Shown here: positions 501-30,501 of the stretch, one piece after another
Layout: each line of letters begins with the position of its first letter
How positions within the stretch are numbered: the first letter of the stretch is position 1
Assembly: GCF_000015145.1 (NCBI RefSeq)
Contig: NC_008818.1
Span: 210,001 to 242,000 of the forward strand
Direction of reading: 5' to 3'
Source: Hyperthermus butylicus DSM 5456
GTDB taxonomy: Archaea > Thermoproteota > Thermoprotei_A > Sulfolobales > Pyrodictiaceae
DNA: 32,000 bases
Translations under genes and position numbers: made by a program
Notes under the pieces: generated by a model
What the model was told of the DNA's origin: nothing
The model's input: the letters and a program-made list of their open reading frames with translations, nothing else
Databases searched by the model: none

Positions 501-575
501 TGCGAGCCTAGCGTAAACACCATACGGAAGCCGTTCCAGTCCACTGCAGCTAGAGCCGAGACAATCATTCGTTGT

Positions 576-1841: not shown

Positions 1842-2599
1842 ACAAAGGCGTCCATGCTACGATATATCACGTACATGGAGTAGACGGCTAACACGAGTGC
1901 AGCAGCAGAGACGGCGAGTATAGCTCCGACCACTACATAGGCTGTCTGCATGCTAAACCCGGCAACCTCTATAATCCTCTCGATCTCTGATGGTGTAGTC
2001 AACGCGTACACGGCATAGCGCAACCCGATAATCGAAATGAACAGTATGAGGGGGAGTAGCGCGGCAGCTATGAGGGGGCCGAGCTTCCTCCGGGAGCGAA
2101 ACGCGTGGATCGAAACGAGGAGTGCAAACACGTAGATGCCAAGCATGAGGAAGCCGGCGCGGAGGAATATGGGGGTAAGTATCATGGCTAGCACGGCTGC
2201 AAGGACATAGAGTCTGTAGGCCCGGCGCACATGGGTAAGCCTTGAGGAGAAGTCGTAGTATGAAGCGGCTACATAGTTGGAAAAAACATGCAGGCGCCAA
2301 ACAGCCTCCTCAACCGCCCCACGATCAGACGGGTCAAGCCTTGAAAACGTTCTTAACACACTATCGGCACTCTTATTCAGCGCTACAGCTAGATCGTACT
2401 GGTCTATCCGCAGCTCCCCCAGCACCTTCTGCACAGCGCTGCGTGCTCTCTCAACCTCCCTCAGCGCCCTCTCCTTCGCACGACCATCGAGACGGGACGA
2501 TGCCAGTCTCTCTATGCGGTCAAGCTTCTCTAGCAACCTCCGTAGCTCCTCAGCCGACTGCAACGCATCAGCACGCCCCGGTAGACTGGTAACAAGCAC
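1838..2599 (-). CDS. Hypothetical membrane protein (N-terminal coiled-coil region, about 4 C-terminal TM helices)
   Basis: A 253-aa ORF. It has a charged helical N-terminus (EELRRLLEKLDRIERL...) followed by long hydrophobic segments. No family recognised. Its stop shares a CTAG with the convergent decarboxylase gene. Confidence 0.5.
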   Translation of the reverse strand: MLVTSLPGRADALQSAEELRRLLEKLDRIERLASSRLDGRAKERALREVERARSAVQKVLGELRIDQYDLAVALNKSADSVLRTFSRLDPSDRGAVEEAVWRLHVFSNYVAASYYDFSSRLTHVRRAYRLYVLAAVLAMILTPIFLRAGFLMLGIYVFALLVSIHAFRSRRKLGPLIAAALLPLILFISIIGLRYAVYALTTPSEIERIIEVAGFSMQTAYVVVGAILAVSAAALVLAVYSMYVIYRSMDAFV

Positions 2600-2694
2600 T
2601 TACCGTTGGCGCCTAACAGTCATCCACTTATATGCTACGAGGGTTATTAGTAGGAATACTACGCCCCAGCCAAATGCTACGAAGGCCTAGCGCG

Positions 2695-4398
2695 CTAGCC
2701 TTCACGTGGACTCACCCCCCTCCTAATTTCCTCACCATACCTCTTATAGAGGGCCTTATAGTTGAGAGCTAGGCCTATTAGGAACATTATCACCATCATC
2801 GCAACGCCTATCCAGCCGAAGATGTTCTCTGGCTTGGCGGCAGCGGATTCGGTACCTGTTGCCAGGAACCATGCCAGCATTATTATCAGGTAGATTGGTG
2901 TGATAATGCCGACAACGTACTTCCAGTACCACTTCGGCACGGTAATGTAGGCACCATTATGCAGCTCCCTGTAGCTCTCCTCAATGCCCCACAGCCACAG
3001 GGCAGCTACGACCTCGAATAGTGCTACCACTAGCAGCAGCAGGCTACCGGCGTAGAAGTCTACGAGATCGAGGTAGTCCGTCAGCTGGTCAGTCTTCATG
3101 GCGCCCTCAATGTTTACGAATACGCCGGTTATGAATACCATCATGAAGGCTATCCATGCACTATACCTTCTCGCGATGCCGTAATCCTCCTCGAACATCG
3201 AAGTTAGAACGTTAACTATCGCAATGGCGCTTGTTATACCGGCAAACCATAGCAGCGAGTACCAGAGGAAGCCTGCCAGGGCACCAAGGCCTCCTAGGTG
3301 GTTGAATAGTGGTGGCAGGGCAACCATTGACGCAAGGAATATTGAGAGCTTGCCTGCAGCGATGTCCTGTATGATGCTTGGGCCTCCAAACGCGTACAGT
3401 AATGGTATCACGATGCTGCCTCCGAGTACTACCTCGGCGAACTCGTTGAGGGAGGTGGTAGTTAGGGCTGATAGTGGTAGATCGTCCTCCCTGCGCAGAT
3501 AGCTAGCGTAGTTTGGTATGATGCCACCGATACCGATGCTTAGCGTGAAGAAGATCTGGCCAGCACCCTCAATGAATGTTGCAGGGTCCTTTAGCTTCTC
3601 AAAGTTCGGGGTCCAGAGCCACTCAAAGCCCTTAAGCGTGGACCATTCCGGCTTTACAGGAGCGCCAAGGGTTAGCGAGACCGTTGCTAGGATTACAGCC
3701 TCAATAAACAGTATTGGCATCATTATCTTTGCTGCAATCTCAATGCCGCGTCTGACCCTCCTGGATACAATTAGTGTAATTACTAGTAGGGAGATGAACC
3801 ACGCCGGCACATTTCTAGCTGGATCCGTTAGGAAGTCTATGAAGAACGTTTTGGCCTTGGTGGCGTCTGTCAGCTCGGCAAACTTGCCGCTAATTGCTGC
3901 CGTTGCATAGTAGCCCATCCAGCCTATGATATTGGTGTAGTAGCCCGTGATCATTACGCCAGTTAGGAATGCTATGGTGCCACCTATGATTGCAAACGCT
4001 GCTGCATTCTTCTTTGTGAGCCTATTCCTTGAGACTATGTAGAGCATTGGGGTTAGGTAGCCATGGCCATGTAGGCCGCCGTGCCGGCCGAGGGTCCACT
4101 CTACGAACATTAGTGGGATGCCTAGGAGTACAAGGGCTATGAAGTATGGTATGAGGTAGGCGCCGCCACCGTAGGCGGCAGCCTTGCCAGGGAATCTTAG
4201 GAAGTTGCCTAGGCCGATAGCATTACCTGCCATTGCTAGGATGAGGCCTATCCTTGTCGCCCAGTATTCCCTCGTTCGGACAGTCACTAGTCTATCACCG
4301 TTAATAGTGTGGGAGCCATAGCTGAAAAAAATCTTACCCGGCGAGTAGCAAATTGTGGAAACCTGTCTTGCAATATTAGCTGGCCCGTATAGAGGCAC
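2695..4398 (-). CDS. Sodium-dependent transporter, neurotransmitter:sodium symporter (NSS/SNF, LeuT-like) family
   Basis: EYWATRIGLILAMAGNAIGLGNFLRFP is the NSS TM1 signature, close to the LeuT N-terminus. About 12 hydrophobic helices. An alternative GTG start at 4287 would give a LeuT-like N-terminus. A TATA-like CTATAATTT (complement of about 4421-4430) would fit a leaderless ATG at 4398. Confidence 0.9.
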   Translation of the reverse strand: MPLYGPANIARQVSTICYSPGKIFFSYGSHTINGDRLVTVRTREYWATRIGLILAMAGNAIGLGNFLRFPGKAAAYGGGAYLIPYFIALVLLGIPLMFVEWTLGRHGGLHGHGYLTPMLYIVSRNRLTKKNAAAFAIIGGTIAFLTGVMITGYYTNIIGWMGYYATAAISGKFAELTDATKAKTFFIDFLTDPARNVPAWFISLLVITLIVSRRVRRGIEIAAKIMMPILFIEAVILATVSLTLGAPVKPEWSTLKGFEWLWTPNFEKLKDPATFIEGAGQIFFTLSIGIGGIIPNYASYLRREDDLPLSALTTTSLNEFAEVVLGGSIVIPLLYAFGGPSIIQDIAAGKLSIFLASMVALPPLFNHLGGLGALAGFLWYSLLWFAGITSAIAIVNVLTSMFEEDYGIARRYSAWIAFMMVFITGVFVNIEGAMKTDQLTDYLDLVDFYAGSLLLLVVALFEVVAALWLWGIEESYRELHNGAYITVPKWYWKYVVGIITPIYLIIMLAWFLATGTESAAAKPENIFGWIGVAMMVIMFLIGLALNYKALYKRYGEEIRRGVSPREG

Positions 4399-4494
4399 TT
4401 TGTGCAGGGTATTATCGTAAATTATAGAATGTCGGGTGTAACCACACGCACCAGCCTATAATTATTGTTCTTACCCGCACTATATTGCAGGGGA

Positions 4495-5280
4495 TCATGC
4501 AGATGTTCTTTCCGTGACAGCCTTGAGAACGTATTCTGCAAGCTCGCTCCCAAGTGGTATCCATGCTCCGAGCCTCTTGGCCTCCCGGAGTACTGCTTCG
4601 AGAACCCGTATCCTTGCCCCGCGTCCTATGCATTGAGGGTGCATCGTCAATGAGAGGTAGCTGTGCCTCCTAGCTGCATATCTCATCTCGTCTAGCCACA
4701 TCTCCAGTAGCTCCCGTGGCGTGAGGGACCGATGGTACTCCAGATATGGCCAGTCGTCAAGCCTCCAGTCGACGGGTAGCTCTACAAGCCCCTTGCCGAG
4801 GATGTATGGCTCCTCGTCGTCCATGAGGCTGCTATCGTAGAGGTAGCCCCGGCTCCTGAGCAGCTCTAGGGTCCAGGGGCTCCACCTCCAGTAGGGGGCT
4901 CGGAACCCACGTGGCTTGCGGCCGACTATACCGGCTAAAGCCTCCTCCATAGAGGCGAATACCTGCTCTTCAGCGCTACGCGATGATATTTCGTCGAGCC
5001 TCTCATGCATATAGCCGTGTCCTGCGACCTCGTGGCCACGTTCGACAAGGGCTCTCACAAGGTGGGGGTAGCGGCGGGCGACCCAGCCTGGTACAAAGAA
5101 GGTAGCCCTAACACCGTGGGCTTCGAGGACCTCCAGGACTCGCCAGAGCCCTCTCCTCTCCGCAAACCTTCCACGGCTACGTGCCACTGGATCAGCACCT
5201 TTCCAGGCCTCAGCACTGTCAACGTCGAGGTCAAAGCTGAGGAATAGGACAAACCCGTACCCGGCGGGGGGCCGGAACAA
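4495..5280 (-). CDS. Polysaccharide deacetylase (NodB-homology / CE4 family)
   Basis: NodB motifs: FDLDVDS (Asp-Asp), GHEVAGHGYMHE (His-His metal ligands), FRAPYW, LTMHP. TTG start. Confidence 0.85.
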   Translation of the reverse strand: MFRPPAGYGFVLFLSFDLDVDSAEAWKGADPVARSRGRFAERRGLWRVLEVLEAHGVRATFFVPGWVARRYPHLVRALVERGHEVAGHGYMHERLDEISSRSAEEQVFASMEEALAGIVGRKPRGFRAPYWRWSPWTLELLRSRGYLYDSSLMDDEEPYILGKGLVELPVDWRLDDWPYLEYHRSLTPRELLEMWLDEMRYAARRHSYLSLTMHPQCIGRGARIRVLEAVLREAKRLGAWIPLGSELAEYVLKAVTERTSA

Positions 5281-5369
5281 GCCCGGTCAACCGCTAGAAT
5301 ACACCTCCACGGCTGGGAGCTAAGGGTGTAATGCCATAGCGGTCACGGCTCGTTGCTGCAGTGTCTATG

Positions 5370-5519
5370 CTAGCTTCTAGTGTCGATGAGATACTCGAGT
5401 CCTACAAGGACGTATATTAGGGCCCATAGGGGGTCGAGGCTGAACTCCTTGGCAGCCTTGTAGATGAAGAGGCCTGCGAGTATTAGGGCTAAGCTGCGCC
5501 GGGCAACTATACATCCCAA
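5370..5519 (-). CDS. Possible small two-helix membrane protein (49 aa, TTG start); below the ORF-track size cutoff
   Basis: Manual translation: (M)GCIVARRSLALILAGLFIYKAAKEFSLDPLWALIYVLVGLEYLIDTRS*. Two hydrophobic helices lie in an otherwise empty 470-bp gap. No homology evidence. Confidence 0.25.
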   Translation of the reverse strand: MGCIVARRSLALILAGLFIYKAAKEFSLDPLWALIYVLVGLEYLIDTRS

Positions 5520-5754
5520 CCCCTAGCAACAAGGCGTAGAGCCATAGCTTCCCACCTCAGAGCAGCGGCGGAGAGCTGGCACCCCTAGAACATTATAGCT
5601 GGTATAGGGGCTAATTAACATATGGTAATGAGGAGTTGTGTAGGCTGTTCCGGTTATAGTCTTCCACCCATGTTTCAGGGCCAATAGACATAAAAACCAG
5701 AAGCAATTTCTTACTAGTAGCAAAATCGGAGAGAAGGTTCGGGGTGTACGAGTT

Positions 5755-6453
5755 ATGCCTCTACAAGCTCCATCCATTGGAGAGAAGTTCCCAGAAATCG
5801 AGGTAATGACAACCCATGGCAAGATAAAGCTGCCAGACCATTTTAGGGGTAAGTGGTTCGTGTTATTTAGCCATCCAGCAGACTTCACGCCGGTCTGCAC
5901 CACAGAGTTCGTAGCTTTTGCCAAGAGGTACGAGGACTTCAAGAAGCTCAACACAGAACTCATCGGCTTAAGCGTTGACAGCACCTTCAGCCACATTAAG
6001 TGGGCTGAGTGGATCAAGGAGAAGCTAGGCGTGGAAATACCATTCCCGATAATCGCCGATCCAACCGGCGAGGTTGCAAAGAAGCTAGGGCTCCTACATG
6101 CTCAGAGCAGCACGGCAACCGTACGCGCTGTATTCGTGGTAGACGATAAGGGTGTTGTGAGAGCTATCCTCTACTACCCGCAAGAGGTTGGCAGAAACAT
6201 TGACGAGATATTGAGGCTGATAGAGAGCCTCCAGATAAGCGACAAGTACGGCCGCGCCATCCCGGCAAACTGGCCAAACAACGAGCTAATCGGCGACAAC
6301 TTGATAGTACCGCCTGCAGCTACGGTACAGGAGGCCGAGGAGAGACTAAAGAAGTTCAAGTGCTTCGACTGGTGGTTCTGCTACGAGGACAAGGCAACAG
6401 CCGAGGAGAAGGAGCTAGCCAGGAAGTTCCTCAAGCGCGTTGCTAACTGCTAG
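5755..6453 (+). CDS. Peroxiredoxin (Prx6-type archaeal thioredoxin peroxidase)
   Basis: Peroxidatic Cys motif [14 protein letters not shown]. Full-length collinearity, from memory, with Aeropyrum pernix thioredoxin peroxidase, including the C-terminal CFDWWFC resolving-Cys region. Confidence 0.95.
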
Positions 6454-20960: not shown

Positions 20961-21038
20961 CCACTACACCTACATACAACACCCATCAAAATCGGTCTAA
21001 ACACATAAACTTACCCGTATCGGTGAAGTTTCCACATA

Positions 21039-21062
21039 AAGCATGGTGGCAAGCATGGTGGC
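21039..21062. repeat. Perfect 12-bp tandem duplication (AAGCATGGTGGC x2)
   Basis: Read directly: aagcatggtggc at 21039-21050 and again at 21051-21062, in an intergenic stretch. Confidence 0.9.
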
Positions 21063-21291
21063 CCCTCTAGTGTAACATCATAATACATGCAGGCAACGAG
21101 GATCCTAGTTGTATAGCCTTGCACGCTCATGGCAGGAAGGATGTAGAGCAAGTGATACCAGATTATAGAGAAGGTACAGCTCGTGAAGAGACTACTCGCA
21201 GAGAGAACAGGCATAGGCTAGGCAGGCTCCTGGAGCCCGGTACACACTAAGTGTTGGGCGGTGTTGGCTCCTAGCCTGTGCATCCCTGGGC

Positions 21292-22045
21292 TCATGGCCT
21301 CTCTTTGGCTAGTGCTTCTAGTGCCAAGTGTGCTATGTAGAGGGTCTTTGTCCTCCTGGCAAGGTATTCTGAGACCTGGCCCAGCACCTTCTTGTCGGCT
21401 TTGCCCCTGCGGGCTAGCTCGTAGAGTGGCTCCTCCAGCTTAGGCTGCTCCAGATCTTCGGCCCTCCAGAGCCTCTGCTATGTGTTCGAGCGGCGTGTCT
21501 GCTGGGAGCCCGGCTGCTGGCAGCAATTCCTTTGTCTCGTGGGCCTCCTCTAGTAGTCTCACCAGCCTCTTCATGCCCGCCTTCTTGGCCGCGTCTAGCT
21601 CTACAACCTTTACACCCACAGCTGAGGCGTACATGTTTATCCTCTTAACCTGGTCGTGGGCGAGCGCAAGCGTCGGATAGAGCGCGAGACAACGGTACTC
21701 CCCCGAGAGGCTGCGGCGCAGAAAGTGAAGCAGCCAAGCCTCTGTCTTTCCGGACCCGGTGCCAGATACCAGGACAACATTGTAGCCTCTATTGAGGGCC
21801 TCTAGCGCCTCAGCCTGGTGCCGATAAAGCCTTCATTTGCTGCTAGGCAGGCTCGAGAGCTGGGGCACAACATCCGAGAACCTAGCCTCCACGGTCTCTG
21901 GCTCCGACGGCGGCTCCACGAAGGAGATGTAGGAGTAGCCTAGCCTCTCTAGCAGCTTGGCAGAATCAACGCGAGCCATACCATGGCCTACCACTTTGAG
22001 GCGATCAACCGCCACCCTATTAACCCGCGCTGCACGACGCGTCAA
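21292..22045 (-). pseudogene. Remnant of a superfamily-2 (DEAD/DEAH, YprA/Lhr-like) helicase: in-frame TGA at 21833-21835, no motif II, frame change near 21440
   Basis: Manual translation: ...[50 protein letters not shown]...RCLALYPTLALAHDQVKRI... This contains the Q-like motif, motif I and motif Ia. No canonical start codon lies between the TGA and motif I. No DExH follows. The tail continues in another frame (EDLEQPKLEEPLYELARRGK...KERP*). Confidence 0.55.
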
Positions 22046-22307
22046 CGAAGACTGTACAGAGGCATGCTGGGCTTAAGGCTAGCCTCCCGTAAGCTGTCTA
22101 TGATACCTAGGGGGCCTCCTCAAGCTAATCTTGACGGATAGCCAGGCTGTATGGATTCCTACAGCTTCCTATCCACAGCACCTCGAGCTATACGTCAGAC
22201 CTCTCTGATCGTGTTGCTGTATTTTCCGCTTACATAGATCCAATTGTACCGTATGGGTTTGAAGCAGGAAGGGCGGCAGCACTATACTAGCCTCTGGCTG
22301 CCGTGTA

Positions 22308-22970
22308 GTGTACGCGGCGTCTGTTATGGTTGCATTGCGTCGCCGTAGGCTGGGTAGAAGCCAGCCTGTGGGGAGGCGGGGGCCTGGGCCTAGCGAGGAT
22401 TTCCTCAGGGAGGCTAGTGAGGCTGTCCAGCCGATCCACGGGCAGGGCTTCTTCTACGTGGGGTATGGCTACATAGCATATTACATAGTATTTGACTACA
22501 ATGATCCCCTAGGCTACTACGAGGCTGTACTCCGCAATCCCAAGCTCTACGAGGAGGAGACGCTGAAGCTCTACTATGGGATGCAGGAGCTTGTGGATCA
22601 AGAGGAGGTGAAGGTTAACGGGGAGCGTGTCCGCCCCAAAGTAGCTATGGTAGATATCGGGTTTCGAGGGCGCAGCTCAAGAGTCTACATAGTTTTCGCG
22701 CTACGGTTCCGCGCCCCGATAAGGCCGGGGGTTAACGTGTATGAGAACCGCTACGAGCCAGAGCCCATAGAGTACGACTATGAGGCCTACTGGGTGTTCC
22801 CGCCGGGCTCCAGGATCCTAGAAGTGGACATGGGCACGGGAAGCGAGGACTGGGAGATAGTCGATGACAATGTCCTAGCGATCTATGGGAAGCGGGGAGG
22901 CAGAACGGGCGGCTACGAGAAGATAGTCTTCCGCATGCCTGAGAAGCCTATAATGCAGGACGAAGAGTAA
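22308..22970 (+). CDS. Hypothetical protein (Tyr/Glu-rich, predicted beta-rich)
   Basis: A 220-aa ORF convergent on the signalling locus. The Arg-rich N-terminus is likely not real, so the start is uncertain. No family recognised. Confidence 0.45.
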   Translation: MYAASVMVALRRRRLGRSQPVGRRGPGPSEDFLREASEAVQPIHGQGFFYVGYGYIAYYIVFDYNDPLGYYEAVLRNPKLYEEETLKLYYGMQELVDQEEVKVNGERVRPKVAMVDIGFRGRSSRVYIVFALRFRAPIRPGVNVYENRYEPEPIEYDYEAYWVFPPGSRILEVDMGTGSEDWEIVDDNVLAIYGKRGGRTGGYEKIVFRMPEKPIMQDEE

Positions 22971-23005: not shown

Positions 23006-23812
23006 CTAGCCCCTCTCCACGAATATCTCAGCGTCTCTAGCGGGTATCCTCACCCCCTCTAGCAGCGCCTCCCTTCCAAGAAGCATTGTGCCATCATCCC
23101 TCTCTACCACCACTTGGACTCTGCCATTCTCGACGACGGCCTGCACAACCGTCCTGTCGCCCCTGCAGAGTGTGTATATGCGTGCACCTGCTATCTCAGC
23201 AACCTCGAGCACTATGTCGGTGCAGCTCCGGTTAGTGGTCTGTGCTGTCAACCGTTCACCCCTAAGTATTATGGCCACTGCTGTCAGCGGGTTAAAGTAG
23301 TCCCTAAGGTCTAGCCTTGAAATCCTAGCCTCAAGCGCTGCAGGTTTGGCAGGCATCGCTGCAGGTGTTGCAGTAAGTCTCAGTGGTGATGCTGCAGGCT
23401 GTAGGGATGGCCCAGCAGCTGCTGGCGCGGCGGGAGGCCTTGCTGCAGGTGGATGAGCGCCTATAAGCTTGTAGAGGGCCATCACTCCATCTGACAGTAT
23501 GCTCTTCGGCCATGTCTGCAAGTCAATGTTTACCAGCTGGGGTGTGAGCGTTATCAACTCGATCGTGCCACGCTTAGCGCCAAGGAGCTTGGCGAACTCC
23601 TGGAGACACTCGTCACCCTGAAGGAGCCTAGCGCCGATGGCTATACAGCCAGCGCGGCCGTCGCCCGAAACGTCTATCTGGAATATCCTACCGTCCGGCG
23701 TCTTATAGACGAGTCTCCCATTACCCATCCTCAGCAGCTGAGCTATAGCTGCGCGTAGAGGGAACCTGGAAGCATCACTTATCCTCACAACCGGGCCTAT
23801 GGTCGTGTACAT
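23006..23812 (-). CDS. Two-domain protein: tandem DUF4388/PATAN-like modules joined by a Pro/Ala-rich linker
   Basis: N-terminal module: FPLRAAIAQLLRMGNGRLVYKTPDGRIFQIDVSGDGRAGCIAIGARLLQGDECLQEFAKLL...GTIELITL. Linker: PPAARPPAAPAAAGPSLQPAASPL... C-terminal module: ...RIYTLCRGDRTVVQAVVENGRVQVVVERDDGTMLLGREALLEGV. Both fit the pattern tG.L.l...g...i.f..G.iv.A...g...G.eAl..l. Motif-level call only. Confidence 0.55.
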   Translation of the reverse strand: MYTTIGPVVRISDASRFPLRAAIAQLLRMGNGRLVYKTPDGRIFQIDVSGDGRAGCIAIGARLLQGDECLQEFAKLLGAKRGTIELITLTPQLVNIDLQTWPKSILSDGVMALYKLIGAHPPAARPPAAPAAAGPSLQPAASPLRLTATPAAMPAKPAALEARISRLDLRDYFNPLTAVAIILRGERLTAQTTNRSCTDIVLEVAEIAGARIYTLCRGDRTVVQAVVENGRVQVVVERDDGTMLLGREALLEGVRIPARDAEIFVERG

Positions 23813-23840
23813 GGCCCGGTTGCACCACTCCAGAACAACT

Positions 23841-24650
23841 CTACTTCTTCGTGAACAACAGTATATAGCTTGCCGCTAGCGGTGCGGCACCAGCCACCGT
23901 AGCCTCTAACAGCGAAAGGCCAGCAATCAGCGATGACAAGTAGTAGGCGGCTGTTATGGCGCCTGCAAGGAGCACCCTTAGCGCGGAGACCGTGAACCCA
24001 ACCCTCTCCTTAGCAGCCTCCGCCAGGGCTGGCCTTGCTGCTGGCGCTGTAGCCTCCTCGAGCCTGTCAACAGCAAGTCTTAGGCTTGTGCCGCAGTTGG
24101 GACACGTCCTGGAGACATTGTAGGCTCCACAGTAGGGGCAGACAGCTGTGCCAAAGGTTAGGCGGCGGCCACAGCTCGGACAAGTGTACGTATAGATCTC
24201 CAGCATGGCGCCACACTTGGGACACTTGAGTGGCCTACCTTCCAGAATCCTGCGTACTGGTTCAAAGAGCGCCGTTGTAGCTCGGGGGTCGCCGAGTATC
24301 GAGATCGTGAAGCCCTCGCCGAGATCGGCTACGAGTAGTGAGCGGCTAGCATAGCCAGCAATCGCCAGCTGTGTCCTGCCGCCGACAGCGCTGTGGCTAG
24401 CAGCCTCGAGGTAGGAGGTTGAGAGCGAGGCTAGCTCGTCGGCATAGATCTGCATTTCCGGGTTCGGAGCGTTAACACTATAGGCTAGGCCCTCGTGTGC
24501 ACCAACCACAAGGTCTACACCATCAACGCCAGCTGCTAGCGTCATAATGCTGGTCAGTTTCTCCTCTGGCGACCCCCCCTTTGGTGGTGAAGTGCTCAAC
24601 ACGCACACCACCCAGCTAGTATAGGTCCTACCAGGGTGGAAGAAAAACAT
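23841..24650 (-). CDS. Roadblock/LC7-like domain + double zinc ribbon + C-terminal TM anchor
   Basis: Roadblock pattern: GVDGVDLVVGAHEGLAYSV...EMQIYADELASLSTSYLEAASHSAVGG-RTQLAIAGYASRSLLVADLGEGFTISILGD. Four CxxC pairs: KCPKCG...CPSCG...CPYCG...CPNCG. C-terminal hydrophobic helices: VLLAGAITAAYYLSSLIAGLSLLEATVAGAAPLAASYILLF. Start uncertain; GTG 24611 is possible. Confidence 0.7.
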   Translation of the reverse strand: MFFFHPGRTYTSWVVCVLSTSPPKGGSPEEKLTSIMTLAAGVDGVDLVVGAHEGLAYSVNAPNPEMQIYADELASLSTSYLEAASHSAVGGRTQLAIAGYASRSLLVADLGEGFTISILGDPRATTALFEPVRRILEGRPLKCPKCGAMLEIYTYTCPSCGRRLTFGTAVCPYCGAYNVSRTCPNCGTSLRLAVDRLEEATAPAARPALAEAAKERVGFTVSALRVLLAGAITAAYYLSSLIAGLSLLEATVAGAAPLAASYILLFTKK

Positions 24651-24693
24651 GGCTATAAAGCAGTAAGTGCAATGGTAGGGAAGGAGGCGGGGG

Positions 24694-25734
24694 CTAGATT
24701 ATGGATGAGAGCGTGTAGCTAGGCATACTCCTCTTCTCGCCCACATCAACCACAAACACCTGGTAGAATGCAGCAACTATCTCCTCGCCGAGCTTTGACC
24801 AGAGCCCCCTTAGCTCGCGGTACTCGCCGTTATCCAGGAAGCCTAGGTCAGCCATGGACCTGGGGGGCCAGCCGCCGGGATAGCCGTGCTCCCTTTCAGC
24901 ATCAACTACTTGTCTCCAGTGCTGTGCAGTAGCTGAGGGGAGCCCTTGGAACGGGCTAGCCCCAAGGTAGACATAGGCTACGAGCTGGAGTCCATACCAT
25001 GTCGGGGTCCACATAACCCAGGAAAGTAGCTCTCTTGATGTCTTAGCTGGGAGAAGAGTGACGGGTAGCTCTTCAGGATCCGGTGTGCGTAGAGGTATGC
25101 CTAGCTCTGCGAGCGCGTCAACGGGCATGTAGTGCGCATCTCTAGCCGGTATAACCGTGAGCGGATACTCCGGGTCATCCATTATCGCCGCTGTCTCAAT
25201 GTCGAAAAGGTAGACCCACCTTCTCCCATCAACCACCCCGTAGGCAGTATTTGCCGTGGTGATATCGACGTGGATTATGTCAGCGGCTTCGAGGCACGCT
25301 AGGGCTTTAAGTACGTCCTTAGCCATCGCGATGCGCTCGGCCTCACTATTCTCCGCGAGGTAGCTGCGGAGCGTGTCAAAACTGTTAATGATTTCTGCTA
25401 GCGTCCTAAAACCTTGCACGGGCCGGAAAACCAGTACAGCACGGTCACCAAGAGCACCAACGCCAACCGGTATGCCGCGGCCGATAAGGCTTCTGGGCGG
25501 TGTGAGGCCACAGCGGCGGCGTAGGCGGAGTATACGGCGGAGCATCTCAGCTATACGCTCTACAGGCCTGGCTAGAACAGTCTGCTTCTCCGTAAACACC
25601 TTAACGATGTACTCTCTCCCCCTTATCTTGGCCGTGTAAATGTCTGCCTCGCCGCCGCTATCTATGAGGCTCCACTCATCAGTACTTGTCTCCACGACAC
25701 TGCCGTCGTGAAAAACCAGCGGGATAAAGGTCAT
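24694..25734 (-). CDS. Atypical protein kinase (ePK-like fold, Bud32/RIO-like catalytic loop) with long C-terminal extension
   Basis: Gly-rich loop IDSGGEADIY. Lys in YIVKVF. Helix-C Glu in PVERIAEML. Catalytic loop IIHVDITTANTAY (H.D....N; compare Bud32 HGDLTTSN). Metal-binding Asp in YLFDIETAA replaces DFG. Then WYGLQLVAYVYLGASPF. Confidence 0.7.
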   Translation of the reverse strand: MTFIPLVFHDGSVVETSTDEWSLIDSGGEADIYTAKIRGREYIVKVFTEKQTVLARPVERIAEMLRRILRLRRRCGLTPPRSLIGRGIPVGVGALGDRAVLVFRPVQGFRTLAEIINSFDTLRSYLAENSEAERIAMAKDVLKALACLEAADIIHVDITTANTAYGVVDGRRWVYLFDIETAAIMDDPEYPLTVIPARDAHYMPVDALAELGIPLRTPDPEELPVTLLPAKTSRELLSWVMWTPTWYGLQLVAYVYLGASPFQGLPSATAQHWRQVVDAEREHGYPGGWPPRSMADLGFLDNGEYRELRGLWSKLGEEIVAAFYQVFVVDVGEKRSMPSYTLSSII

Positions 25735-25777
25735 CCCGTTGCCAGCACCCCCACTAGGTTGTGGAGCTGTATGGAGT

Positions 25778-26569
25778 CTAAAAAATCGCTGTCTCGCTTA
25801 GCCTCTCAACGAACCTTCTCACAGCCTCTTCCCACTCCCTGGTGATCTTATCGTTCCTTGGCGCGTCAATGAACATCTTCTCGTGGTATGGCGGATCAAC
25901 TAGGTCTATGAGGCCGCGCTCTTCCAGCACCCTTCTCTGAGCCTCCCTTAGGAAGCTCGCAATAGTGCGTAGCGTCTCGCGGTCAGCATCAAGGCCTAGC
26001 GCTATCGTTGCGAGGCCTATGCGGTTCCTCTGGTTTAGAGCCCTAAGCTTCTCCTGCAGCTCCCCCGTAATCCGGTCTGCAACCTCTACAACGTCCTCCG
26101 GAGTCCTCTTAGTCTCCTTGCCGTCGGTAAACATGAACACCGTTACATACTTCTCTGAGGGTATACTAGTGTCTTCGATGTACCTCTCGATAATCATTGC
26201 AGCGTGTTCAAGGGCGTCGGCCATAGCGGTCATGCCGTAAGGGCGGTTCTCCTCCGTGCTCTCCTGGAATACACGGAGTGCTGGATTGTGCTCAGTTACC
26301 GGGAAGTATACGGCGCCACCTCTCTCTACGACTTTCACGTCATCGCTAAACCATACGAAGCCTACGCGGAACGCTGGCGCCATATTGCTACGGGCAAGCC
26401 TCGCTAAGAGCCTTTCCACAAGCTCTACGAGGTGCTCCCACTTGCTCCTATGATCATAGGTTTTTAGCTCGCTCATGCTAAGGGAGCGATCCAGCATGAA
26501 TATAACCAGCACTGTGTAGCTTAGCGGCCTCCGCTTAAGCACCCTCAGCATAGTGCTTGGAATAGCCAC
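25778..26569 (-). CDS. von Willebrand factor type A (vWA) domain protein with complete MIDAS motif (TerY/ArnB-like)
   Basis: FMLDRSLSMS (DxSxS), GMTAMADAL (Thr) and MFTDGKET (Asp) give an intact MIDAS. A helical extension follows at the C-terminus. Confidence 0.85.
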   Translation of the reverse strand: MAIPSTMLRVLKRRPLSYTVLVIFMLDRSLSMSELKTYDHRSKWEHLVELVERLLARLARSNMAPAFRVGFVWFSDDVKVVERGGAVYFPVTEHNPALRVFQESTEENRPYGMTAMADALEHAAMIIERYIEDTSIPSEKYVTVFMFTDGKETKRTPEDVVEVADRITGELQEKLRALNQRNRIGLATIALGLDADRETLRTIASFLREAQRRVLEERGLIDLVDPPYHEKMFIDAPRNDKITREWEEAVRRFVERLSETAIF

Positions 26570-26617
26570 AGCCTCCCACCTTCCCCTACCCAGCTACTAT
26601 CCCATTGGGCCCTGGAT

Positions 26618-27394
26618 TTACCCTCCCTCCCCCGTCTCGGCCTTCCCTGCCTTCTGCAGGATTGTTACCACTGAGAGGCCTCCAGCTATATTGGCGTAGA
26701 CGATGTGGTTGCCTGCCACCAGTGCTAGCCTCTGCGGCGGCTGTATCCCAAGTGTGTCGAGAGCCCTTGAGAGTGCTGTGAGAGCCTCGGATAGCAACTG
26801 GGCAGCCCTTCTGGCAGTATCCTCGGCTATGCCATCAACGGCTATAAGCCTCTTCTCCTCAACATTAACTGTCATAGCCCTAATGTTCCTAGCGCGTAGT
26901 CCTGCTGGTCCAGTGTGTGCCAGGGAGAGCAGGCTGAGAAGATCTACGAAGACATCGCCAAGCCTGCCACCGGGTACCCTTGGCTGTAGTATTGCTGGGA
27001 ACACGCTGACGAGAACAGTAATAATCCTGTTAACTATCCTCGTGAGCGCCTCGCCGCCATACTCCTCTAGCAGCCTACCCTCAGCCTCAGCCTCAACGTA
27101 GACCCTGCACGCTGAGCCGCGGGGGGTAACGGTTACAGCTACATAGCCCTTAGCGTCGCCACTGAGGTGGAACTGTAACCTCTCCGGCTCCTTCTCCGCC
27201 GAAACCTCTAGCCTTAACCTCTTATACCTGGGCGACGCAAATGAGAGGACTATGGCTCCGCGTTTTTCACCCTTCTCCAGGAGCCTGCCGGCACCCTCGA
27301 AGAACTCTGCATAATTCTTAGACGCTAGCGTCTGTAGCACCTGGTCACAAGAGGCGTGTACGTCTAGCACAGCTTCTCTCCGAACCAGTGGCAA
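26618..27394 (-). CDS. SRPBCC/CoxG-like N-terminal domain + Roadblock/LC7-like C-terminal domain
   Basis: The N-terminal half (RLRLEVSAEKEPERLQFHLSGDAKGYVAVTVTPRGSACRVYVEAEAEG..ALTRIVNRIITVL) is paralogous by eye to the N-terminus of the 491-aa protein. The C-terminal half (IRAMTVNVEEKRLIAVDGIAEDTARRAAQLLSEALTALSRALDTLGIQPPQRLALVAGNHIVYANIAGGLSVVTIL) fits the Roadblock pattern. TTG start. Confidence 0.6.
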   Translation of the reverse strand: MPLVRREAVLDVHASCDQVLQTLASKNYAEFFEGAGRLLEKGEKRGAIVLSFASPRYKRLRLEVSAEKEPERLQFHLSGDAKGYVAVTVTPRGSACRVYVEAEAEGRLLEEYGGEALTRIVNRIITVLVSVFPAILQPRVPGGRLGDVFVDLLSLLSLAHTGPAGLRARNIRAMTVNVEEKRLIAVDGIAEDTARRAAQLLSEALTALSRALDTLGIQPPQRLALVAGNHIVYANIAGGLSVVTILQKAGKAETGEGG

Positions 27395-27531
27395 GGCTGC
27401 CCTACGCCCACACTAAACCCTACAGGAGTCGCTACTACTAAAAGATGTGTATTGGCTCCAGCATCCCGAGCCGGCAGGGATGAAGCTCTAGCTGCAAAAC
27501 CGTTAACCCCTCACACCCGGTGTAATTCTGT

Positions 27532-27552
27532 CCCCGGGTTTCCCAAACGGGG
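27532..27552. promoter_or_regulatory. Imperfect palindrome CCCCGGGTTTCCCAAACGGGG in the divergent promoter gap, 19 nt upstream of the PP2C start
   Basis: Read directly. The half-sites CCCGGGTTT / AAACGGGG flank a CCC centre. It is the only obvious dyad in the 176-bp gap between the divergent genes at 27394 and 27571. Confidence 0.2.
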
Positions 27553-27570
27553 CCTAGTAACAGCTCATAG

Positions 27571-28416
27571 GTGGTGCGGGAAGGCTTGGCGTGGAGGGCC
27601 TGGGTTGCTACATACAACACCGTACACAGCGAGGACGACATAGCAGTATGGATGCATCCCAGCGGCGACTACGGTGTGGCCGTGGTTGCAGATGGGGTAT
27701 CCGCGACGGGTAGTGGCGGGGCCTCCTTTCTTGCAGCCCAAAGCTTCACCATGGCTTGCCGCTACTATATGCGGAACCACCTGGACTTCGAGACTATACA
27801 CCGCTGCCTCGGCTTCGTAGCGGAGGCAGCACGCTCCTCTAGCGTGGTGGACGCTGACATAGTGGCGTCGCTGAAGAGGGACTACTACACTAAGTGTAGC
27901 AGTGGCGGCAAGCCCTGTACCGAGCCCCTGACACTGGAGAAGGTGATAGAGCTTAAGCAACCAATGATAGCGCCGAGGAGGGTTGAGAGACGCGAAGCCC
28001 CTTCAACAACGCTGCTAGCAGCAGTCTTTGCAGGTAGCGTGATAGGCTTCCTGCTCCTGGGAGACGGCATAGCAATGGGGATGGGGACTCGGCGGGAGGA
28101 GCTATGGGTCTCGTGGGGGGCGCTGCCGCAGTACTTTCAGGGGGCCCGTGTTGCTAGGCTGGTGGAGCTAGGCAGCGGTATATTCGGTAGGCCAGTGGTG
28201 CTCCTAACAGAGAGCGAGCCAGGGGGTCTCTACGTAGTTGCAACCGATGGCGTTGACCCGGCAGCACTTGCTGAGAGTCTAGCCGAGCTAGTTGCCAGGG
28301 TGGGGAATATCACAGAGCTGGAAAACCCTGCTGCAACCCTACTGGAGTCGGTCAAAACCAGGATGGGCGGTATGGAGGACGATGCATCCCTCGCAGTAAT
28401 ATACCATACAGGCTAG
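27571..28416 (+). CDS. PP2C-family (PPM) Ser/Thr protein phosphatase
   Basis: HSEDDIAV (NED-like), GVAVVADGVSATGSGGASFLAAQ (vaDGmGG...AS), LYVVATDGVDP (l.SDGl) and MEDDASLAVIY (DD.T.vv). All four acidic metal-binding regions are present. GTG start. Confidence 0.8.
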   Translation: MVREGLAWRAWVATYNTVHSEDDIAVWMHPSGDYGVAVVADGVSATGSGGASFLAAQSFTMACRYYMRNHLDFETIHRCLGFVAEAARSSSVVDADIVASLKRDYYTKCSSGGKPCTEPLTLEKVIELKQPMIAPRRVERREAPSTTLLAAVFAGSVIGFLLLGDGIAMGMGTRREELWVSWGALPQYFQGARVARLVELGSGIFGRPVVLLTESEPGGLYVVATDGVDPAALAESLAELVARVGNITELENPAATLLESVKTRMGGMEDDASLAVIYHTG

Positions 28417-29003
28417 AGGTTTGCGGAGGATAGGTTGTAGACCGTTACTATCATATCTCCCTTCTCGAAGACGTGATCGAGAATATTCTTAGCCTGCTCT
28501 GGGTTAAGCTCGGCGCCAAGTTGTGCTGCTGCAACAACCCTACCATCCCTTATGAGGAGGAAGTAATCCGTAGCGTTGAGCTGTACACGGAGCAGTATAG
28601 GCCCCTTACTGGTTAGGGCTGCCCTGAAGTCTGGTAGGTTGACTGGACCACGGTATATTATAGGCGCCCGGAGCACTATGCTGAGCACGTAGGATATATC
28701 GGCTAGCCTTCTCGCCAGCTCGCCGTCCCATGCAGAGGGCTCTAGTACTGGCGCCTCAACCCTAGCTGGCACAGCTTGAGGCTTAGCGGCGGCAGCCTCG
28801 GCAGGAGATAGTATGCGTAGCTTACCCTCTCCCAGGTGCTCGACCGCGTAGCCGCGGCGTCTAGCCCACTTCTCCACCAGCGGCACAGCATCAGCGTCAA
28901 GGCTCACTATTATCTTGCCAGTCTTCCTCACCAGGTTCTCAATGGTGCTATAGGGTATAAAGCCGCCCATGCCGGTGAGCTCGAGTACAGTCTCCTCCAC
29001 CAA
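28413..29003 (-). CDS. Two-domain protein: TusA/SirA-like fold lacking the Cys + DUF4388/PATAN-like C-terminal module
   Basis: N-terminus: LELTGMGGFIPYSTIENLVRKTGKIIVSLDADAVPLVEKWARRRGYAVEHL. This follows the TusA pattern ldlrGl.CP.P.l........G..l.v..dd......i..w....g..v, with Phe-Ile in place of the Cys-Pro. C-terminus: GPILLRVQLNATDYFLLIRDGRVVAAAQLGAELNPEQAKNIL. Motif-level only. Confidence 0.5.
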   Translation of the reverse strand: MVEETVLELTGMGGFIPYSTIENLVRKTGKIIVSLDADAVPLVEKWARRRGYAVEHLGEGKLRILSPAEAAAAKPQAVPARVEAPVLEPSAWDGELARRLADISYVLSIVLRAPIIYRGPVNLPDFRAALTSKGPILLRVQLNATDYFLLIRDGRVVAAAQLGAELNPEQAKNILDHVFEKGDMIVTVYNLSSANL

Positions 29004-29025
29004 GACCTTGCACCTTCCGGGGAGC

Positions 29026-30501
29026 CTACCACTTAGCTATGGTTGAGAGTATACGCTCAACCATATTCCTACCGCGCACGATCGGGCCATGCTTTGGCGC
29101 AATAGCCTCTATGTCGAGTGTTGTTATTCTCTCTAGCCACTCCTTCAACGCTGTCTTGTCTGCTGTGTGGAGCACATAGCTTCTAACCATTTCCTCGTAG
29201 GTGTCAATGTCGTCTACGTACATGTTCCAGAGCCCTGGTGGTGACACGGCACCGAGCGTTACGCCGGTGAAGAGCGTGCGGCTACGCTCGTCGTATATTG
29301 TCAGGGTGGGGGCTCCACGGGCTCGGGAGGGTATTACGAGGAGCTTGCTGTCGCCAAGCTGGAGCGACACCTCCCGTGTGGGTAGGGGCTGGAGCTGACC
29401 CGGCGCAGTAATGTACGCGGCGAGGACGGCAACCCAGTAGGCGGGAGCAGCTATTGAGGCCTTCTTCGCCCTCGCCACGAGCGCGTCGAGGGCTTCCATC
29501 GCGTCGGCTTCAGCGGAGGATAGCAGTATGTAGCGCACTTCATCCAGGTCGGCCACAACGTTCCTAATAGCCCTTAGTAGTCTCTCGCCACCACTCGGAT
29601 CTATTATCGCTGCCTCATAGCCGGAGACTACCACGTATGTGTTTGCCGCAAGACCACCATACTCCAGCCTTGCAGCACCACCAATCCAGTAGACCTGGTG
29701 GCCATTATCATCGAAGAGCTTCTCGGGCTCGTAGAGGTATGCCTCACTGCTACCTGTGAGGCTCCAAGCCTTAATCCTCACACGGTAGCTTGGGGGCCTA
29801 ACAGCTATCGAAAGCACCCTATCGCCAGTAAATTTGTCCCCCTCAACCTCCGCGTAGAGCCCGGTTATCCTGTTCCCGCGCAACACCATTCGTAGCAAGT
29901 ACCTGCCGCTGTAGTCGCTCACCTCTGCTAGGTAGTCATCGTATCCCAGTAGCGCCATAAGCCTCTGCGCAGCCTCGAACGCAACATTCCTTATCGGGGT
30001 AAAGCTGTCGTAGTAGACTAGCGTGGTACTCGCGGGCAGCGGTACCTCAAGGGCTGCTAGCTTGTTATCAGCATCCACGAGATCTATCTTAGGGCTAGTA
30101 CCCTCAATCTTCCTAGCAATACCCTCAGCTACATACTTCACGATATCGCTAGCTATCTTTGCTGCACCACCAGCACCACCACCACTGACAACTATATGCG
30201 AACCCTCACCAGTATCAATAATGTCAACGGCGAGTATTAGTGAGTCGGTGCGGCCCTTAGCTACGAGTATCACCGTCTCATCCGTCTCGTATATCTTGAA
30301 GTCTAGCCTCGCCCTCCTGCTACCGATTAGCCTCGGCACCCTGATAACCACATAGTTCTCGCCAACCTCCTCAACGTTCTTTGCATTCTTTATGAAGTCC
30401 GTTATACGGCCAATGAGCTTCCTTACACTCTCGGGGTCCAGGGGCACAATGAGCTTAATGGCGCCCTCCTCCCGGCTCATCAAAGGCCTTATGACACTCA
30501 T
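29026..30501 (-). CDS. Three-module protein: SRPBCC/CoxG-like N-terminus, DUF4388-like middle, flavodiiron-protein-type MBL domain with degenerate metal site
   Basis: The C-terminal half is collinear with the FprA/ODP MBL domain: VYWIGG...NTYVVVSGYEAAIIDP...RYILLSSAEADAMEAL...LDIEAIAPKHGPIVRG. Compare vyWvG...NsYLi...aLiDt...yiv.nH.E.DH.G...tIaPsHG.iwr. The N-terminus RARLDFKIYETDETVILVAKGRTDSLILAVDIIDTGEGSHIVVSGGGAGGAAKIASDIVKYV is CoxG-like. Confidence 0.7.
   Translation of the reverse strand: MSVIRPLMSREEGAIKLIVPLDPESVRKLIGRITDFIKNAKNVEEVGENYVVIRVPRLIGSRRARLDFKIYETDETVILVAKGRTDSLILAVDIIDTGEGSHIVVSGGGAGGAAKIASDIVKYVAEGIARKIEGTSPKIDLVDADNKLAALEVPLPASTTLVYYDSFTPIRNVAFEAAQRLMALLGYDDYLAEVSDYSGRYLLRMVLRGNRITGLYAEVEGDKFTGDRVLSIAVRPPSYRVRIKAWSLTGSSEAYLYEPEKLFDDNGHQVYWIGGAARLEYGGLAANTYVVVSGYEAAIIDPSGGERLLRAIRNVVADLDEVRYILLSSAEADAMEALDALVARAKKASIAAPAYWVAVLAAYITAPGQLQPLPTREVSLQLGDSKLLVIPSRARGAPTLTIYDERSRTLFTGVTLGAVSPPGLWNMYVDDIDTYEEMVRSYVLHTADKTALKEWLERITTLDIEAIAPKHGPIVRGRNMVERILSTIAKW

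Follow-up and report, generated by a model that had tools for sequence, protein, structure and literature searches.

A putative membrane-proximal phospho-switch of Pyrodictiaceae with a conserved SRPBCC-Roadblock, vWA and kinase core

Gene layout of the locus

The window analysed here is a stretch of 32,000 nucleotides from the archaeon Hyperthermus butylicus DSM 5456 (contig NC_008818.1, positions 210,001 to 242,000), and its subject is a cluster of eight genes, named G1 to G8, located between positions 23006 and 30501. The cluster encodes a von Willebrand factor A (vWA) protein, a protein-kinase-like enzyme, a PP2C phosphatase and five further proteins, and corresponds to H. butylicus ABM80117–ABM80124 (Table 1), entries whose public records are either hypothetical or carry a bare domain name. 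An earlier interpretation made without database searches, called here the sequence-only reading, had described eight tightly packed genes with PP2C alone on the plus strand. These open reading frames (ORFs) are confirmed, with same-strand gaps of 22–48 bp. The minus strand holds two units, G8-G7 and G5-G4-G3-G2-G1 (gaps of 28–48 bp within the latter), separated by G6, which shares 4 nt with G7 at their 3′ ends. The true start of G2 lies downstream of the first ATG, as orthologue alignments agree with the NCBI start. The GC content of the module, 0.55–0.58, is the same as in the rest of the window, where the module is flanked by housekeeping genes (Thi4, TrkA-C, CbiMQO). The divergent region between G5 and G6 is poorly conserved between genera and contains TATA-like TTTTAG/TTTTAA elements only; no conserved operator-like motif was seen in it, and an Rfam scan of the window returned no RNA families.

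Table 1. Genes, domains and intergenic region of the module (positions in the window; all protein features are on the strand of their gene).
Feature	Position (nt)	Strand	Protein or extent	Record or basis
G1	23006..23812	(-)	ABM80117, 268 aa	public record: hypothetical
G1, two small alpha/beta domains			residues 1-120 and 160-268	two invariant Cys each; Pro/Ala linker between
G2	23841..24650	(-)	ABM80118; NCBI start 24599	public record: zinc-ribbon
G2, probable Roadblock-like domain	24246-24572			N-domain profile similarity
G2, two zinc ribbons	24081-24227		four CxxC	DZR 1.1e-7, Zn_Ribbon_1 5.3e-8 (Pfam)
G2, C-terminal hydrophobic hairpin	23853-24011			transmembrane reading from sequence
G3, kinase	24694..25734	(-)	ABM80119, 346 aa	public record: hypothetical; UniProt: protein kinase domain
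G4, vWA	25778..26569	(-)	ABM80120, 263 aa	public record: vWA
G5	26618..27394	(-)	ABM80121, 258 aa	public record: hypothetical
G5, CoxG-type SRPBCC	27002-27385		residues 4-131	beta-alpha-alpha-beta6-alpha helix-grip topology (AlphaFold2)
G5, Roadblock/LC7	26651-26956		residues 147-248	alpha-beta-beta-alpha-beta-beta-beta topology (AlphaFold2)
G5/G6 divergent intergenic region	27395..27570		176 bp	presumed promoters of PP2C and of the G5-G1 operon
G6, PP2C	27571..28416	(+)	ABM80122; NCBI start 27586	public record: PP2C
G7	28413..29003	(-)	ABM80123, 196 aa	public record: hypothetical
G8	29026..30501	(-)	ABM80124, 491 aa	public record: MBL-fold
G8, CoxG-type SRPBCC	30100-30480		residues 8-134	AlphaFold2 and Foldseek
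G8, small alpha/beta domain	29761-30021		residues 161-247
G8, ODP-like MBL domain with degenerate di-iron site	29086-29649		residues 285-472

Conservation and phyletic range of the module

Thirteen loci were compared, and amino-acid identities across the module proteins range from 30 to 80%. Where labels are needed, L014 denotes Pyrodictium occultum, L016 Pyrofollis japonicus, L012 the assembly GCA_053988455.1, L011 a Parcubacteria metagenome-assembled genome and L017 a divergent metagenomic locus. The genes for G5, vWA and kinase are contiguous, with their order unchanged, in 13 of 13 loci, and the SRPBCC-Roadblock protein G5, the vWA protein and the kinase are thus the invariant core of the module. 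Around this core, the order G8-G7-(PP2C, opposite strand)-G5-vWA-kinase-G2-G1 recurs in the loci long enough to judge, with the departures described below. Sequence identity across loci is highest for vWA (68–80%), intermediate for the kinase (50–65%) and lowest for G1 (31–36%). When flanking ORFs were clustered, only the eight module genes and their antisense shadows were common to most loci, and the flanks differed. The eight genes therefore behave as one conserved functional module, and their association is more than chance. Co-localisation in related genomes, on which the sequence-only reading had staked its proposal, is borne out: across the 13 loci, of which those from named genomes are all Pyrodictiaceae, the orthologues lie together and are not scattered.

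The description as an eight-gene system is accurate for several loci, although its uniformity was overstated. All eight genes are found in H. butylicus, L001, L003, L005, L006 and Pyrofollis japonicus (in order in the latter), and also in L017, with a reduced G1. In P. occultum, G1 and G2 are inverted and lie upstream of G8; seven of the eight genes are nevertheless kept within ~11 kb, which argues for selection on proximity. PP2C is present in 11 of 13 loci; in L009 and L014, the P. occultum lineage, a WD40 protein stands in its place. This beta-propeller protein (L009:3358-5298 and L014:6354-8210; 618–646 residues, 618 in P. occultum) occupies the PP2C position on the other strand and has an apparent N-terminal signal-like segment and a C-terminal hydrophobic anchor, as judged from its sequence. 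The most divergent locus, L012, retains only PP2C, a 306-residue polytopic membrane protein (L012:7439-8359, between PP2C and G5), a G5-like protein of 29% identity, vWA and the kinase; G1, G2, G7 and G8 were not found within 10 kb. The polytopic protein, present without G2, indicates that a membrane component is retained even there. In L005 and L006, PP2C lies 3.6 kb from the core owing to an insertion.

The phyletic distribution is narrow. Among 5.8 billion clustered proteins, the kinase G3 has 24 homologues, all at least 40% identical, and the named ones all belong to Hyperthermus, Pyrodictium or Pyrofollis (Pyrodictiaceae). When single representative genomes of the GTDB species were scanned by pattern, 10 loci labelled Pyrodictiaceae, Pyrodictium or Hyperthermus were recovered, together with one weak Parcubacteria kinase. 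The latter, in L011, is the only match of the genome scan outside Pyrodictiaceae, a kinase-like stretch with 26% identity over residues 17–169 (E 4e-4). Look-ups of identical proteins added four genomes, namely L012, P. occultum, Pyrofollis japonicus and L017.

The vWA protein, the kinase and the phosphatase

G4 is a single-domain vWA protein (Pfam VWA_2 4.4e-9, VWA 1.1e-8) and the most conserved member of the module, as expected for a hub with many interfaces. The residues of its metal-ion-dependent adhesion site (MIDAS), D27, S29, S31, T114 and D149, are invariant across orthologues, in keeping with the intact MIDAS noticed earlier, and the last 65 residues, ending in RLSETA, are nearly invariant. 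Against the TerY model of the PADLOC defence-system collection, G4 gives a weak match (E 1.1e-3, 16.5 bits).

G3 has the complete catalytic set of a protein kinase: an SGGEA glycine-loop equivalent, K45, E59, H155-x-D157-x4-N162 and D178 are invariant in 16 sequences. No Pfam or family model reaches its cutoff on G3. For the Bud32/RIO-like kinase that had been proposed, the NCBIfam Bud32 models give a weak match at 1.7e-5, and the family profile searched against the Protein Data Bank (PDB) finds human TP53RK/Bud32 at E 0.011, aligned via HGDLTTSN/HVDLTTAN. Pkinase is matched weakly by eight of the 16 family members, and others match FTA2, APH and Kdo. In the alignment, the C-terminal half displays an APE-like PAR(D) motif and W-x3-WYG-x-QL, resembling the DxWxxG of helix alpha-F, at the positions of subdomains VIII and IX of eukaryotic protein kinases (ePK). 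The catalytic lysine, the HxDxxxxN motif and the metal-binding aspartate of the proposal thus stand, whereas the full C-lobe points to a divergent ePK-like kinase and not to a minimal Bud32/RIO. We regard G3 as a divergent protein-kinase-like enzyme that, judging by its motifs, looks active.

G6 belongs to the PPM/PP2C phosphatases (Pfam PP2C_2 9.4e-8). Its acidic motifs, all of which had been recognised, are invariant in six orthologues (E21/D22/D23, D41-G42, D165-G166, D226-G227 and D270/D271), and the enzyme likewise appears active; a single-sequence query of the PDB gave no informative match. Invariant cysteines occur in both enzymes (C79, C109 and C116 in PP2C; C75 and C147 in the kinase) and may be structural disulfides or redox/metal sites.

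G5 joins a CoxG-type SRPBCC domain to a Roadblock domain

The AlphaFold2 model of G5, built with 15 homologues, has a mean predicted local distance difference test score (pLDDT) of 80.3, rising to ~90 in the SRPBCC domain. In a Foldseek search of the PDB, the top match of the N-terminal domain is Aeropyrum APE2225 (2ns9, Pfam COXG) at 8.7e-8, and the C-terminal domain matches dynein Roadblock (3l7h, 6.3e-5), a Ragulator subunit (5y39_G, 1.2e-4) and Myxococcus xanthus MglB (6hjm, 1.7e-4), all with probability 1.00. The G5 orthologue of L017 additionally matches Pfam Robl_LC7 at 1.4e-3. The N-terminal domain of G8 shares the same fold: its AlphaFold2 model (residues 1–280, pLDDT 81.7, ~90 in the SRPBCC domain) also has 2ns9 as top Foldseek match, at 4.6e-6, and Mycobacterium smegmatis CoxG (8uds) is among the matches of the SRPBCC domains. 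The two SRPBCC domains predicted earlier are thereby confirmed on structural grounds, and at the sequence level neither matches the Pfam COXG/SRPBCC models. Two Roadblock domains had been predicted as well; the one in G5 is established by its fold, and the other, in G2, is only probable (see below).

The linker between the two domains of G5, QPRxPGGRLGD (residues 137–147, window 26954-26986), is invariant in 15 sequences although its pLDDT is 42–54. A conserved disordered linker that ends in Gly-Asp, encoded beside a MIDAS-vWA gene, suggests a MIDAS ligand. G5 also has two invariant cysteines, C16 and C96, which may be a structural disulfide or a redox/metal site.

The scaffold and sensor-like proteins G8, G7, G2 and G1

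G8: The C-terminal domain of G8 had been read as a metallo-beta-lactamase (MBL) fold with a degenerate metal site. This proves right and can be sharpened: the domain is a clear member of the oxygen-binding di-iron protein (ODP) family (Pfam PF19583 at 1.7e-21, 77 bits against a cutoff of 27; PDB 6qrq at 1.6e-25) in which the iron ligands are replaced. Compared with the canonical ODP encoded in L002 and L008, the ligand motif HQDPD becomes SAEAD, HFLHS becomes RARGA and SGD becomes TGV. Nor are the ligands conserved within the family, as the HQDPD site of G8 orthologues reads TSVEAG or TGPGVA and the final histidine is variable. By its sequence, the domain is a 'dead ODP' that has lost its iron ligands. 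The N-terminal 280 residues have eight clear relatives (E<=1e-10) in an exhaustive phmmer search of 1.84 billion representatives. The only distant relatives of the middle domain (query residues 139–255) are P0048 (1217 residues, E 7e-5) and P0049 (450 residues, E 4e-4), one of which is a large beta-propeller-repeat protein (SBBP, DUF5122) and the other free of Pfam domains; neither matches DUF4388.

G2: The double zinc ribbon with a membrane anchor attributed to G2 is supported by the Pfam matches in Table 1 and by the invariance of all eight cysteines, the anchor being a hydrophobic tail read from sequence. The profile of its N-terminal domain aligns with that of the G5 Roadblock domain reciprocally and in register (E 0.007–0.05 in a 67-sequence database), making a second Roadblock domain probable.

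G7 and G1: G7 is kept in nine loci and consists of an N-terminal, possibly TusA-like alpha/beta domain (sub-threshold TusA matches at 0.036–0.039 in three orthologues), a variable Ala/Pro linker and a C-terminal domain. The two domains of G1 appear to have arisen by internal duplication, with reciprocal N-to-C matches at E 0.007–0.06, and their architecture varies: a coiled-coil insert is found in L005 and L006, a single domain in L017, and no G1 in L012. The invariant cysteines of G1, C56/C69 and C197/C216, may be structural disulfides or redox/metal sites. When 36 domain pairs were compared with hhalign, the best two were the C-terminal domain of G1 with the middle domain of G8 (E 0.0011) and the two G1 domains with each other (E 0.0045), consistent with a small domain that recurs twice in G1 and once in G8 with weak mutual similarity.

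The claim that was not confirmed concerns four DUF4388 (PATAN)-like domains. Pfam DUF4388 (PF14332) gives two matches, both to the same region of G7 proteins and both below threshold (E 0.076 at residues 137–183, and 0.055 in P. occultum; 13.5–14 bits against a cutoff of 25), G1 and its orthologues give none, and the other three domains are weakly similar to one another. The C-terminal domain of G7 is thus possibly PATAN-like and, with so weak an assignment, the tie to MglA/MglB-PATAN polarity modules that it would imply stays hypothetical. Aligned over whole proteins with hhalign, the shallow family profiles revealed no shared modules, and profile searches of PDB sequences with G5, G7, G1 and G2 returned low-complexity or zinc-ribbon matches only. 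Such negative sequence comparisons carry no weight here, since the two structurally proven SRPBCC domains score a mutual probability of 0.3% in hhalign.

Genes beside the module

The flanks of the module differ between lineages. Within the window, the adjoining gene at 22308-22970 encodes a 220-residue protein without a Pfam match, 76–80% identical in three other loci. It adjoins the module in the window, L004 and P. occultum and lies ~5 kb off in L005, and may be a loosely linked neighbour. Upstream of it, ~1.3 kb (20961-22307) contain no ORF longer than 78 residues and no Rfam match; two small ORFs, at 21440-21634 and 21833-22045 (both on the minus strand), might be genes.

Several other neighbours recur. 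An AhpC/TSA peroxiredoxin gene lies directly downstream of G1 in four loci (L002:5821-7148 and L008:2500-3826, spans that include an ODP gene; L001:12790-13254; L016:12748-13218). After it, L002 and L008 encode a free-standing canonical ODP (Pfam 3e-74) whose metal motifs are intact; in the window, the AhpC homologue is found at 5755-6453, ~17 kb from the module. A DUF2204 nucleotidyltransferase (Pfam 7.6e-72) is encoded upstream of G8 on the opposite strand in L003:4463-5038, L005:1004-1576, L006:395-967 and L007:922-1494, and was not found beside the module in the window. The 3.6-kb insertion between PP2C and G5 at L005:4824-8396, with its equivalent in L006, carries genes for heme-copper oxidase subunit I (COX1 1.6e-43), a c-type cytochrome with two hemes and a regulator of the MarR type. 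Pyrodictiaceae are best known for anaerobic hyperthermophiles, which makes the oxidase insertion striking; its genes neighbour those for ODP-derived and CoxG-like domains. Upstream of G8 in L017, positions 1-5532 hold a weak match to T2SSF, the platform protein of type IV pili and archaella, and several large unannotated genes; a link of the module to a surface filament is possible from this one locus. Between G1 and G2 of P. occultum (L014:1682-2377), a PIN-domain gene (weak Pfam match) and an adjacent ORF of 82 residues may form a toxin-antitoxin pair.

A proposed phospho-switch and its alternatives

The reading that we modestly favour is a membrane-proximal Ser/Thr phospho-switch specific to Pyrodictiaceae, an expanded and split TerY-P-like triad. 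The kinase G3 and the phosphatase G6, whose catalytic motifs are seen, would form a writer/eraser pair acting on a membrane-proximal scaffold around the vWA hub and G5. Roadblock domains normally dimerise, and G5 could pair through its own either with a second G5 or with the Roadblock-like domain of membrane-anchored G2. In both G5 and G8, the CoxG-type SRPBCC domain may bind membrane lipid or quinone by analogy with CoxG proteins, which would bring the complex to the membrane and might let it signal the presence of a hydrophobic ligand. Such a membrane or quinone role is plausible given that, in Sulfolobus, soluble partners are brought to the membrane by CoxG-like proteins, as with the G3PDH anchor (PMC11962113), and that a preprint on bacterial CoxG bears the title 'Quinone extraction drives atmospheric carbon monoxide oxidation in bacteria' (10.1101/2024.01.09.574806). 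Contact with the membrane would be made by the hairpin of G2 together with the CoxG-like domains or, at the minimal locus L012, by the polytopic protein. The MIDAS of G4 may bind an acidic residue on a partner protein, for which the invariant, flexible RLGD linker of G5 is the leading candidate. By phosphorylating and dephosphorylating the scaffold, kinase and PP2C would then control assembly, with candidate sites in the RLSETA tail of G4, suggested by analogy with ArnB, and in the Pro/Ala linkers of G1 and G7. The dead-ODP protein G8, G7 and G1 would act as lineage-variable accessory adaptors. With no effector encoded in the module, the output must act on something encoded elsewhere.

Several observations weigh against this phospho-switch. 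Every link between its parts is drawn from gene proximity, and no output domain is present in the module. Two loci lack PP2C, so that in them the eraser is either dispensable or supplied by a gene elsewhere. The ligand specificity of CoxG is not transferable, given the lack of any Pfam COXG/SRPBCC match, and the assignments of the G2 Roadblock domain and of all PATAN domains are weak. In addition, the PADLOC TerY match of G4 is marginal, and the kinase family differs from the characterised TerY-P kinases.

The alternative that survives best, though a tentative one, is a sensor of redox, O2/NO or quinone state, in which respiratory or oxidative status is converted into phosphorylation through the CoxG-like and ODP-derived domains. 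It specifies the input and is compatible with the phospho-switch. Besides the ODP-family domain of G8, it draws on the genes beside the module: a canonical ODP and/or an AhpC/TSA peroxiredoxin in L001, L002 and L008, AhpC in Pyrofollis, and oxidase, cytochrome and MarR genes within the module in L005 and L006. By structure, both SRPBCC domains moreover match CoxG-type proteins best, a family tied to quinone extraction by the title of the preprint cited above, and each G1 domain has two invariant cysteines. However, the replaced and variable di-iron ligands mean that G8 cannot sense O2 or NO in the way of ODP, the redox neighbours change with lineage and are not beside the module in H. butylicus, and the cysteine pairs may be structural disulfides only.

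A more specific circuit, which we regard as rather unlikely, would dispense with a GTPase altogether: an SRPBCC domain loaded with lipid or quinone, seated on a membrane Roadblock dimer, would gate PP2C or the kinase, while the MIDAS-vWA latches the RLGD linker. If true, this receptor-phosphatase-kinase circuit would be an archaeal, independently evolved counterpart of plant PYL-PP2C-SnRK2 logic and would make Roadblock a kinase scaffold instead of a GTPase regulator.

The opposite arrangement, in which the Roadblock domains (and PATAN-like ones, if real) serve as partners of the GAP/GEF type for an MglA/Arf-like GTPase encoded elsewhere, with kinase and PP2C modulating them, is unlikely. The Roadblock folds matched by the C-terminal domain of G5 belong to proteins that are typically NTPase regulators, PATAN genes sometimes adjoin mglA/mglB (PMC4316618), and the T2SSF gene lies just upstream in L017. 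In described prokaryotic systems, however, the genes for the GTPase and the MglB-like protein are often linked (PMC4316618), whereas a scan up to 10 kb from the module in the window, L001–L010, L012 and L014 gave no ORF with Walker A and NKxD motifs; the PATAN identity is, besides, unproven. The absence of a GTPase or FHA partner, noted by the sequence-only reading, holds within this scope, as none of the eight proteins matches FHA in Pfam or NCBIfam at E<=1.

A TerY-P-type antiviral defence island with the triad as an infection-triggered switch is quite improbable: TerY-P-like modules are reported in stand-alone phage defence and TerY-P triads accompany CoCoNuT restriction systems (PMC10542128), G4 has its weak TerY match, accessory genes turn over between variable flanks and P. 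occultum has a PIN-domain gene with an 82-residue ORF between G1 and G2, yet six proteins have no PADLOC match and the kinase generic kinase-domain matches only, the module encodes no nuclease, OB-fold or other effector, its GC content is that of its surroundings, and it occurs once per recovered locus with a divergence that tracks a flanking housekeeping-like gene (76–80% for the 22308 gene vs 70–74% for vWA). A known defence system was accordingly rejected as the primary reading on the PADLOC results.

Significance

What is understood of Ser/Thr signalling in archaea comes mostly from the Arn network of Sulfolobus, and a 2016 review lists one biochemically characterised archaeal PPM/PP2C phosphatase (PMC5007285). 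The module would offer a second compact, self-contained crenarchaeal phospho-signalling assembly, comprising a writer, an eraser, a MIDAS hub, two lipid-binding-type domains, a Roadblock platform and a membrane anchor. Finding Roadblock/LC7 and CoxG-type SRPBCC domains in a vWA-kinase-phosphatase context, with no adjacent GTPase, would widen the known uses of both folds. The proteins should be thermostable and could serve structural work on vWA-kinase-PP2C triads, which also occur in bacterial defence islands. Restriction to one family growing near 100 C limits generality, and genetic access is likely to be difficult. The combination of an SRPBCC-Roadblock protein, a MIDAS-vWA and an atypical kinase is undescribed and structurally tractable, with an inferred function and a narrow phyletic range.

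Comparison with known systems

Plant PYR/PYL/RCAR-PP2C-SnRK2: The resemblance is a functional analogy only, in that a ligand-binder of the START/SRPBCC fold, a PP2C and a Ser/Thr kinase co-occur. PYL1-ABI1 complexes are among the Foldseek matches of G5, but the best matches are CoxG-type and not PYL-type, and no evolutionary link is implied.

CoxG and ODP: Both SRPBCC domains have 2ns9 as their top structural match, but are fused to signalling domains and do not lie beside a dehydrogenase, and no Pfam COXG match exists at the sequence level. The C-terminal domain of G8 is a clear sequence homologue of ODP (PF19583; PDB 6qrq/6qnm) and differs in that the di-iron ligands (H-x-D-x-D, H..H, D, H) are replaced, in its fusion behind two other domains and in the absence of a chemotaxis context.

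MglB/Roadblock-GTPase systems: The Roadblock fold of G5 matches MglB and Ragulator subunits, and together with a second Roadblock-like domain, that of G2, it could form the dimeric platform typical of such proteins. Unlike MglA-MglB, the actinobacterial conservons and Ragulator, the module has no GTPase gene in it or near it, and its Roadblock domains are fused either to SRPBCC (G5) or to zinc ribbons and a membrane anchor (G2).

Sulfolobus ArnA/ArnB: The Arn network, which regulates the archaellum, likewise combines a crenarchaeal vWA protein with Ser/Thr kinases and a phosphatase, with a zinc-finger protein encoded nearby. ArnB is phosphorylated on its flexible C-terminal part (PMC5007285), a model for the proposed RLSETA tail of G4. 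The FHA-zinc finger protein ArnA has no counterpart here, as no FHA domain is present; the phosphatase is of the PPM and not the PP2A/PPP type, the kinase is not a Hanks kinase recognisable by Pfam, and no archaellum genes lie nearby. When the G4 family profile was searched against all PDB sequences, ArnB was not among the matches at E<=1, and TRAP/collagen vWA domains appeared at E>=0.05. A direct Arn orthologue set, which the sequence-only reading had raised against its own proposal, is therefore rejected on the missing FHA domain, the missing ArnB-like vWA and the PPM phosphatase.

TerY-P: This triad consists of a TerY-like vWA protein, a PP2C phosphatase and a Ser/Thr kinase that carries a zinc ribbon fused at its C-terminus; its predicted role is that of a phospho-switch sensing metal (Anantharaman, Iyer & Aravind 2012, summarised in PMC10542128). 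The module likewise groups genes for a MIDAS vWA, a PP2C and a Ser/Thr-type kinase, with adjacent vWA and kinase genes and with zinc ribbons on the gene directly after the kinase, and a phospho-switch around a metal-binding vWA is the predicted logic. Differences are nonetheless several. The kinase has no Cys-rich C-terminus and is fused to neither a zinc ribbon nor an OB fold, the ribbons being on the separate, membrane-anchored G2; its family is distinct, with sequences from Pyrodictiaceae and metagenomes only. G6 matches PP2C_2, but its gene lies on the opposite strand beyond G5 and is dispensable, being absent from two of the 13 loci. G4 has the vWA domain and the MIDAS, with the weak match to the TerY-specific model given above. 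Five extra proteins are added (the SRPBCC-Roadblock protein G5, the SRPBCC-x-ODP protein G8, G7, G1 and G2), and no Ter, restriction or nuclease context is found. A full-text literature search found no published description of an archaeal module with Roadblock, vWA and PP2C, so the combination is undescribed, as had been supposed, although it lies closer to a known triad than the sequence-only reading implied. The module is best filed not as a categorically new system but as an expanded, split version of the vWA-PP2C-kinase triad, of which TerY-P is the closest known kind.

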